Source: Acidobacteriota bacterium
GTDB taxonomy: Bacteria > Acidobacteriota > Blastocatellia > UBA7656
Length of the DNA: 64,000 nucleotides
NCBI GenBank assembly: GCA_040754075.1
Contig: JBFMDH010000001.1
Coordinates: 166,262-230,261 of the forward strand
Direction: 5' to 3'
The notes below the pieces were generated by a model. The model worked only from the letters and a program-made list of their open reading frames with translations, was not told where the DNA came from and searched no databases. Made by a program: the position numbers and the translations under genes. Numbering within the stretch: position 1 is the stretch's first letter; every line of letters begins with the position of its first letter. Shown here one piece after another: positions 12,167 through 13,306 of this stretch.

Positions 12167-13306
12167 ATGAGCGACACAACCGCACTCGAAAAAAAAATAA
12201 TCGAACGCATCAACCGCGACGGCGCAATGAGCTTTCGCGATTTTATGCAACTGGCGCTTTATGATGCGGAACTTGGCTATTACAACACCGAGCGGTTGAA
12301 GATTGGCGCAACCGGTGATTATTACACCTCAAGCAATGTCCACCCGGCATTCGGCGCAATCCTCGCGCAAGTCTTCGTTCGGTTGTGGAAAGACCTCAGT
12401 AGTGACAACCCTGAAAATGCGAACAGCGAATATCTTGAGAGCGATACTGCCTCACCCTTGAACCTCGTTGAAATGGGCGCGGGAACCGGGCAACTGGCAT
12501 TCGATGTTTTAAGCGCCTTGCGTGATGAACACGCCGAAGGGTTTGCGCGCGCGAATTACACGATTATTGAACAAAGTCCGGTGATGCGCGCCAGACAACA
12601 GGAAAAGTTGAATGATTTCAGCGAGCGGGTTTGCTGGCAAACCTTTGCCGCGTTAAAGCCGACCGCCGGAATTTTCTTTTCCAATGAACTGGTTGATGCG
12701 ATGCCTGTGCATCGCTTGCGCTTTACCGGCGAAACCGTCGAAGAACTTTATGTAATCGTAGTTGACGAATCGCATCACCAACGTCTCGCCGTTGTCTGGG
12801 GCGCGCTTTCAAAACCGCAACTGGTTGAATATCTCAAACGTTCGCAGGCGAAATTTTTTCAAGGGCAAATGATCGAAGTCAATCTCGATGCCATTCACTG
12901 GTTGTGGGAAGTTTCCCGCGTGATGGAAAAAGGTTTTTTAGTGACCCTTGATTACGGCGACCTCGCGCCGCATCTCTATTCGGTTGAACGCCTGGAAGGC
13001 ACGCTCAGATGTTTTTACCGGCACACCTTGCGCGATAATCCGCTGGAACGTATTGGTGAACAAGACCTCACTGCCAGCGTCAATTTTTCGGCGCTGATTG
13101 ATTACGGGAAAGATTTCGGATTTGAACAGGTGAGTTACGAACGACAGACCAATTTTCTCTTTCGCAATGGGTTGATTGAACGCATCGCGGCAATGGAAAC
13201 GGGCGACACGATTGATGATTTACAGAAACGCCTGGCGATAAAAAATCTCTTTGTGCCCGGCGGCGTGAGCGATAATTTCCGCGTACTGGTTCAACGGAAA
13301 CCTTAG
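12167..13306 (+). CDS. MidA/NDUFAF7-family SAM-dependent methyltransferase (DUF185)
   Basis: 379 aa; N-terminal FRDFMQLALYD.ELGYY and VEMGAGTGQLA SAM-binding motif, overall match to the MidA/NDUFAF7 family. Confidence 0.7.
   Translation: MSDTTALEKKIIERINRDGAMSFRDFMQLALYDAELGYYNTERLKIGATGDYYTSSNVHPAFGAILAQVFVRLWKDLSSDNPENANSEYLESDTASPLNLVEMGAGTGQLAFDVLSALRDEHAEGFARANYTIIEQSPVMRARQQEKLNDFSERVCWQTFAALKPTAGIFFSNELVDAMPVHRLRFTGETVEELYVIVVDESHHQRLAVVWGALSKPQLVEYLKRSQAKFFQGQMIEVNLDAIHWLWEVSRVMEKGFLVTLDYGDLAPHLYSVERLEGTLRCFYRHTLRDNPLERIGEQDLTASVNFSALIDYGKDFGFEQVSYERQTNFLFRNGLIERIAAMETGDTIDDLQKRLAIKNLFVPGGVSDNFRVLVQRKP

Follow-up and report, generated by a model that had tools for sequence, protein, structure and literature searches.

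The locus described here raises the question of why a methyltransferase gene should directly follow nuoA and nuoB, which encode subunits of complex I (NADH-quinone oxidoreductase), in a bacterium of the Acidobacteriota. The genes lie in a stretch of 64,000 nucleotides (contig JBFMDH010000001.1, positions 166,262 to 230,261) that we refer to as a whole as the window, and coordinates are those of the window except where another locus is named. The methyltransferase gene and its product, called MT below, belong to the MidA/NDUFAF7 family, and a preliminary description based on the DNA alone had suggested that the adjacency reflects a functional link to complex I. The three genes concerned are:

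10961..11377, plus strand: nuoA, NADH-quinone oxidoreductase subunit A, 138 amino acids (PF00507, E 1.5e-40)
11560..12102, plus strand: nuoB, the subunit bearing iron-sulphur (Fe-S) cluster N2, 180 amino acids (PF01058, E 2.6e-28)
12167..13306, plus strand: MT, a MidA/NDUFAF7/COG1565 methyltransferase dependent on S-adenosylmethionine (SAM), 379 amino acids (PF02636)

We think it probable, at about 60%, that MT belongs to the class I SAM-dependent protein arginine methyltransferases and serves complex I biogenesis through dimethylation of an arginine of NuoD. The gene order, the family and fold of the protein, its intact motifs and the linkage to complex I genes across phyla, including that to ndhH, are matters of observation and are given before the proposed function is discussed.

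The nuoA-nuoB-MT locus

The MT gene (open reading frame, ORF, 12167-13306) runs from an ATG start to a TAG stop, with nuoA and then nuoB upstream on the same strand. NuoB scores well above cutoff with two profiles (TIGR01957, 245.5 bits for a cutoff of 142.7; NF005012, 249.6 for a cutoff of 116), and its translation has the CC...C...GCPP cysteines that are the ligands of cluster N2. NuoA matches the NCBIfam NuoA models with scores under their equivalog cutoffs, and is 84-94% identical to the NuoA found at the same position in Blastocatellia relatives. There is no nuo gene beyond nuoA and nuoB in the 64-kb window, as judged by tblastn with Nitrospira NuoA, NuoB, NuoCD, NuoE, NuoF, NuoG, NuoH and NuoI and cyanobacterial NdhH as queries, and the large ORFs at 0.25-20.6 kb are by Pfam annotation unrelated housekeeping genes, so that the nuoA-nuoB pair is isolated in the window.

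The preliminary description is thus borne out in that a DUF185/MidA methyltransferase gene, matching PF02636, does follow nuoA and nuoB, which are themselves identified by profiles. It also spoke of MT taking the place of nuoC/nuoD, which is right as a statement of position after nuoB and should be read in that sense only, and of a split nuo cluster, which holds for the 64 kb of the window.

Family, fold and conserved residues of MT

MT is a bona fide member of the MidA/COG1565 family. It matches PF02636 (Methyltransf_28, formerly DUF185, COG1565) with an E-value of 2.3e-58 and 198.1 bits (cutoff 23.3) over profile positions 17-240 of 249, and NCBIfam has no model for it. The family is a large one, with 8,887 related representative clusters (50% identity, E ≤ 1e-3), and the nearest relatives of MT carry Blastocatellia labels; a protein identical to MT is recorded from a metagenome-assembled genome of the Acidobacteriota. 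HMMER comparison with PDB sequences gave 4F3N/4G67 (E 5e-26), 1ZKD (2e-16) and Dictyostelium MidA 5ZTZ (1.4e-7), and the start codon is taken to be right because the N-terminus of MT lines up with residue 1 of 1ZKD.

An AlphaFold2 model made from a 22-sequence alignment has a mean predicted local distance difference test score (pLDDT) of 88.1 and a predicted template modelling score (pTM) of 0.88. Foldseek superposes this model over its full length on 4G67, MidA 5ZU0 and 1ZKD with template modelling (TM) scores of 0.84, 0.80 and 0.78 respectively, and all other methyltransferases give 0.42 or less. As modelled, MT has over its full length the fold that is specific to this family, a Rossmann methyltransferase core with the additional domain of MidA type.

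VEMGAGTGQLA (residues 101-111) contains the glycines of motif I, with E102, G104, G106 and G108 all present, and further family motifs are found at 173-181 (NELVDAMPV), 262-264 (DYG) and 298-307 (EQDLTASVNF). When 86 sequences were aligned (83 bacterial homologues with MidA, 1ZKD and 4F3N) 17 positions were invariant, namely L31, G37, Y38, Y39 (G37 to Y39 being the GYY motif), G47, T54, E102, G104, G108, E174, D177, E193, G256, D262, Y263, G264 and D300, and all 17 are intact in MT. The check on substrate-binding residues raised in the preliminary description was thereby addressed indirectly, through general invariants of the family. Judged by its residues, MT is probably catalytically active. 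There is one peculiarity, a 13-residue acidic insertion, PENANSEYLESDT, at about residues 81-93 (about 12407-12445), that is present only in the MT of the window; relatives 58-72% identical to MT lack it, and the confidence of the model is low there.

With regard to position within the family, 1ZKD and MidA fall outside the clade that holds MT in a neighbour-joining (NJ) tree, which is a rough one. HMMER E-values, the NJ tree and the names used by JGI all place MT outside the NDUFAF7 orthologous group (the mitochondrial and α-proteobacterial clade, KEGG K18164), and it is therefore not an orthologue of the characterised NDUFAF7 clade. It sits instead on a bacterial branch with 4F3N, marked by a longer loop after the DYG motif.

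Linkage of MT homologues to complex I genes

Scanning one genome for each species by means of a diverse alignment, we confirmed at least 594 relatives, from which the best 80 loci were taken, a sample that is biased towards relatives of the query. Look-ups with two Blastocatellia proteins added 4 loci, three of them copies of one place. Together with the window itself and two more Blastocatellia relatives, the 80 species loci make 83 that are non-redundant. Neighbours were counted without the use of labels, after all-against-all BLASTP clustering of the 1,389 ORFs of the loci, as the clusters represented no more than three genes away from MT.

The three most recurrent neighbours of MT are NuoB (14 loci), NuoA (13) and a NuoC/D cluster (12), and a complex I gene is the immediate neighbour on the same strand in 21 of the 83 loci (tblastn and clustering). 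The neighbourhood statistics for DUF185 and nuo genes that the preliminary description had proposed as a check are therefore in its favour. Four arrangements of the linked genes are seen, spread over three phyla, Acidobacteriota, Nitrospirota and cyanobacteria.

In the Blastocatellia MT follows nuoA and nuoB in all five close relatives, whose MT proteins are 53-62% identical to that of the window (tblastn with NuoA and NuoB of the window). The order is reversed in 12 Nitrospirota loci, where MT, nuoA and nuoB follow each other on one strand; from gene maps and Pfam, the MT of Nitrospiraceae lies between secA and a complete operon of nuoA, nuoB, a fused nuoCD, nuoE, nuoF, nuoG, nuoH and onwards. 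A simple consensus scan of the interval from MT to nuoA in Nitrospira revealed neither a terminator nor a promoter.

In the cyanobacteria the ndh genes are dispersed over many loci, and NdhH is the homologue of NuoD and NDUFS2. In four of them ndhH (PF00346, E about 1e-100) directly adjoins MT on the same strand, and it is the partner in all four of the linked cyanobacterial cases. MT follows ndhH in Microcoleus, Chroococcus and a Chroococcidiopsidaceae genome, and precedes it in Aphanocapsa. The Chroococcidiopsidaceae locus (L058, 7443-9947, with MT from 9944 onwards) has two tandem copies of ndhH, and the TGA of the second overlaps the only possible start codon of MT, a TTG, which suggests translational coupling. 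A looser linkage is seen in one Nostoc genome, with ndhH about 4 kb upstream of MT (L075, 4698-5936).

The NJ tree of MT proteins follows the phylogeny of the organisms, with the linked genes in three separate clades and interspersed with unlinked ones. Adjacency to a complex I gene by chance is expected in at most about 0.5% of genomes (twice the number of complex I loci divided by the gene number), and for at least four independent linkage events in about 25 lineages, a lineage count that is approximate, the probability is about 7e-6.

Searches with tblastn revealed no nuoA or nuoB within 10 kb on either side of MT in other Acidobacteriota, Desulfobacterota, Bacillota, Methanoperedens, Scalindua and the rest of the sample. 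We also looked for another functional theme among the neighbours in the unlinked clades and rejected it, as these include a Myb-like protein, PanE, a HIBADH-like dehydrogenase, an AP-endonuclease-2 TIM barrel and an M1 peptidase. Archaea of the genus Methanoperedens use the complex I-like enzyme Fpo. Two Methanoperedens loci (L019 and L022) encode a close homologue of MT, 37% identical, and no complex I-like gene was seen beside it in either.

In the literature that we searched we found a single mention of adjacency between bacterial nuo genes and PF02636, a passing remark on Ca. Actinomarina, in which an NDUFAF7/PF02636 gene comes after the nuo operon (Bulzu et al., bioRxiv 10.1101/2021.02.01.429150), and nothing on methylation of NdhH or on Nitrospira or Acidobacteria. 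The repeated linkage in several arrangements in Acidobacteriota, Nitrospirota and cyanobacteria thus seems not to have been described in the literature covered.

The target arginine and a proposed mechanism

The expected target arginine (GYLHRGxEK) is present in every one of the 15 NuoD/NdhH proteins of linked loci in which the region is covered. We take this to be the equivalent of bovine Arg85, which on a count of residues in the bovine sequence is the LH-R-G arginine of LLH-R-GTEK. The corresponding segment of Thermus Nqo4 is presumably YLHTGFEK, in agreement with a Thr at the target position.

Arg85 in the bovine enzyme's 49-kDa subunit occurs as symmetric dimethylarginine, as does the equivalent residue in human, P. 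pastoris and Paracoccus denitrificans Nqo4 (PMC3750175), which in Paracoccus is Arg65. E. coli NuoCD lacks the modification and T. thermophilus has Thr at this place (PMC3750175, Carroll et al.). The enzyme for dimethylation of NDUFS2 in human is NDUFAF7 (PMC3829151). In mitochondria the arginine is 3.7 Å from cluster N2, and it has been proposed to lock NDUFS2 to NDUFS7, the homologue of NuoB (PMC8042128). The role in bacteria has otherwise "only been inferred in silico", and for α-proteobacteria only (PMC12455994, PMC9006661).

By analogy with NDUFAF7 we propose that MT, holding SAM through motif I (E102, G104, G106 and G108), would recognise unassembled NuoD and dimethylate its arginine in the GYLH-R-GxEK loop, either ahead of the docking onto NuoB or while this takes place. 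The adjacency of MT and nuoB in the window is consistent with a role at the interface of NuoD and NuoB, and the pairing with ndhH in cyanobacteria favours NuoD over NuoB as the substrate. What MT acts on, the kind of methylation it carries out, its role in assembly and the expression by read-through discussed below are what we infer from these data.

Transcription signals around nuoA, nuoB and MT

The signals that bear on expression of the three genes are:

10864..10913, plus strand: two overlapping sigma-70-like promoter matches (TTGACA-17-GACAAT and TTGACA-17-TAATAT, 10 of 12 positions each)
12124..12159, plus strand: intrinsic-terminator-like hairpin, GGCGCAGGGG-CTTGGT-TCTCTGCGCT, with a T-run (10-bp stem, 6 G-C pairs)

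The promoter matches are matches to a consensus only, with 7 in the region for 3.0 expected, and transcription of a nuoA-nuoB(-MT) unit probably starts from those at 10864..10913. The spacer between nuoB and MT is 64 bp. The stem-loop spans 12124-12149 and is followed directly by TTTTTTATTGG, and the end of the T-run is about 8 nucleotides ahead of the MT start codon. The hairpin with its U-run, including a GCGCAGG...CTGCGC core, is at the same place in the related loci L001, L004 and L005, with the T-run ending roughly 10-25 nucleotides ahead of MT, and is not in L006. By itself the 71-nucleotide stretch around the hairpin is unremarkable, with a z-score of -1.3. The possible terminator reported earlier at 12124..12156 is therefore present as a sequence feature.

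No promoter-like site was found on the plus strand at 11900-12166 by a consensus scan. Rfam gave nothing at the gathering threshold for the whole window, and nothing at E ≤ 1 for 10500-13500, which includes the hairpin and the nuoA-nuoB spacer. As the conserved hairpin leaves no space downstream for a promoter of its own, MT is probably expressed from read-through transcripts, and the hairpin probably acts as a partial terminator or attenuator, with MT expressed less than nuoA-nuoB as a result. Partial read-through would keep MT below the level of the structural subunits, which would be fitting for a factor that acts catalytically and of which less is required.

Weighing of alternative explanations

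Several findings weigh against a role of MT in complex I biogenesis. About 75% of the sampled homologues, among them those of other Acidobacteriota (Pyrinomonadaceae and Terriglobia, for example), have no complex I gene within 10 kb. The linkage inside each clade could be inherited synteny, and indeed the flanking convergent malQ gene is also retained in the Blastocatellia. The terminator-like hairpin stands between nuoB and MT, and MT, which has only 21-23% identity with MidA and 1ZKD, groups with the branch of 4F3N type. Most of this can be put together as a different explanation, that MT acts on another protein or on a small molecule, with the nuoA-nuoB adjacency being general synteny of the kind that has kept malQ and the conserved hairpin a true operon boundary. 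The presence of the α-proteobacterial orthologues in an lgt-MT-PF02578 operon, and of conserved non-nuo neighbours peculiar to every clade, would fit with this. However those neighbours have no theme in common across clades, the linkage occurs in four gene orders in three phyla, with Actinobacteria in addition from the literature, at a frequency far above chance, and in cyanobacteria MT is paired specifically with ndhH from among dispersed ndh genes. Nor is the unlinked state an argument against action on NuoD, since the α-proteobacterial orthologues are unlinked and yet NuoD methylation is proven in Paracoccus, a member of that clade. We therefore regard a substrate outside complex I as unlikely, although it retains some weight.

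It is also conceivable, though distinctly improbable in our view, that MT does act on complex I but not as NDUFAF7 does, either modifying NuoB or another subunit or serving as a non-catalytic chaperone that holds NuoD until NuoB joins. In the window MT adjoins nuoB and not nuoD, in Nitrospiraceae it precedes nuoA, and its branch is distant from the characterised enzymes. Set against this, the cyanobacterial partner is ndhH and not ndhK, the homologue of nuoB, and the only modification reported on PSST/NuoB homologues is hydroxylation of arginine, not methylation (PMC3750175). The intact SAM-binding and family-invariant residues argue for catalysis over a role as chaperone only. Methylation of nucleic acid has been proposed for the Wolbachia MidA protein, expression of which in dam-/dcm- E. 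coli gave 166 methylated bases (PMC12455994). That signal is very weak and comes from another branch of the family, the window locus has no restriction-modification partner, target-recognition domain or defence context, and the neighbourhood signal points to complex I, so that we give very little credence to MT being a DNA methyltransferase.

We thus favour action on NuoD, and a functional link between MT and complex I, as read from the adjacency to nuoA-nuoB, is supported by the genome comparisons. The link claimed in the preliminary description has gained from recurrence of the neighbourhood in three phyla, but its likening of MT to NDUFAF7 needs qualification, as MT is on the 4F3N-like branch and not on the mitochondrial and α-proteobacterial one.

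Repeats and other genes near MT

The remaining feature of the nuo region is a repeat between nuoA and nuoB:

arms 11381-11400 and 11529-11548, no strand assigned: inverted repeat of ATTGCGG heptads resembling repetitive extragenic palindromic (REP) elements (20-nucleotide arms, 90% complementary)

It brackets the nuoA-nuoB spacer, which is 182 bp in the window for 35-81 bp in relatives. The heptad (ATTGCGG/ATTGCGA) is dispersed, with 8 matches in the window for 0.08 expected, and is found also at 27364-27389 and 28279-28311. This second inverted REP-like pair flanks an ORF at 27493-28116 (minus strand, 207 amino acids), which we considered as a REP-associated transposase and rejected, as it has no Pfam match.

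Downstream of MT on the opposite strand there are two small ORFs without a Pfam match, and then malQ, for a 4-α-glucanotransferase of glycoside hydrolase family 77 (GH77). The small ORFs (13337-13696 and 13718-14302, both minus strand) resemble one another and also a third at 3566-4219 (minus strand), about 10 kb away, and no Pfam family was found for any of the three. In L001, L005 and L006 malQ comes directly after MT and the two small ORFs are missing, so that a repeated gene family would seem to have been inserted in one lineage specifically. At 7251-9587 (minus strand), close upstream of the nuoA region, there is an ORF for a protein of 778 amino acids with hydrophobic segments, no Pfam match and a long Ala/Glu-rich C-terminus that is probably a coiled coil.

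Significance and annotation

Few post-translational modifications of complex I are conserved, and the dimethylarginine beside cluster N2 is among them; whether it serves in assembly or in tuning of N2 is still debated. It is documented to date only in mitochondria and one α-proteobacterium. From the linkage pattern in three further phyla we would predict that both the modification and its enzyme are widespread among bacteria, including such genetically tractable organisms as cyanobacteria. We would suggest, tentatively and at somewhat less than even odds, that methylation of the NuoD arginine by MidA-family enzymes is an old and widespread step in complex I biogenesis, present in Acidobacteriota, Nitrospirota, Actinobacteria and cyanobacteria. 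If so it would extend to NdhH of the photosynthetic NDH-1, and perhaps to FpoD of the Methanoperedens archaea. The modification would then be no speciality of proteobacteria and mitochondria, and the MT gene would have been drawn repeatedly to a place beside nuo or ndh genes. The linkage across phyla sits uneasily with a purely "proteobacterial origin" of the modification.

One prediction is a dimethylarginine beside N2 in cyanobacterial NDH-1, where it is so far unreported. If the modification is indeed widespread, cyanobacterial genetics could separate the role of the methyl group from that of the arginine, which has been named as a goal for the future by Hameedi et al. (PMC8042128). With regard to annotation, the general idea is already known, as databases use "MidA family" or "assembly factor 7" for such proteins, and the pattern supports naming those now annotated as "SAM-dependent methyltransferase" as putative NuoD arginine methyltransferases.

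Comparison with known systems

The best characterised proteins for comparison are human NDUFAF7 and Dictyostelium MidA (5ZTZ, 5ZU0, 5ZZW), the mitochondrial complex I assembly factor. MT shares with them PF02636, the fold (TM 0.80), the motif I glycines, the GYY, NE..DA.P, DYG and D(L/I)T..V.F motifs, and the association with complex I genes. It differs in having only about 21% identity, no targeting sequence, and extra residues after DYG.

In the case of R. palustris RPA4359 (1ZKD) we have a bacterial cytoplasmic PF02636 protein of similar length to MT (TM 0.78). However the α-proteobacterial NDUFAF7 genes are on a separate branch of the tree and are in an lgt-MT-PF02578 operon, and not beside nuo genes as MT is in the window. 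JGI calls these orthologues "assembly factor 7", and the relatives of MT "MidA family methyltransferase". In our two control loci, from Rhodopseudomonas and Bradyrhizobium, the NDUFAF7 orthologue comes second of the three genes in this tightly overlapping operon (L085, 7141-9910; L086, 7147-9895; PF02578 being Cu-oxidase_4/YfiH-like), and no nuo gene was seen near it.

The closest solved structure is that of the B. thailandensis COG1565 protein (4F3N, 4G67), a structural-genomics target described as a "likely methyl transferase", with a TM of 0.84 and 27% identity to MT. It resembles MT also in the longer loop after the DYG motif and in its C-terminal helices.

The closest parallel in gene order is that of Ca. 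Actinomarina, also non-proteobacterial, in which a PF02636 gene is immediately downstream of nuo genes and was read by the authors as an assembly accessory (bioRxiv 10.1101/2021.02.01.429150). There the gene follows nuoN of a complete 11-subunit operon, whereas in the window it follows an isolated nuoA-nuoB pair and a terminator-like hairpin.

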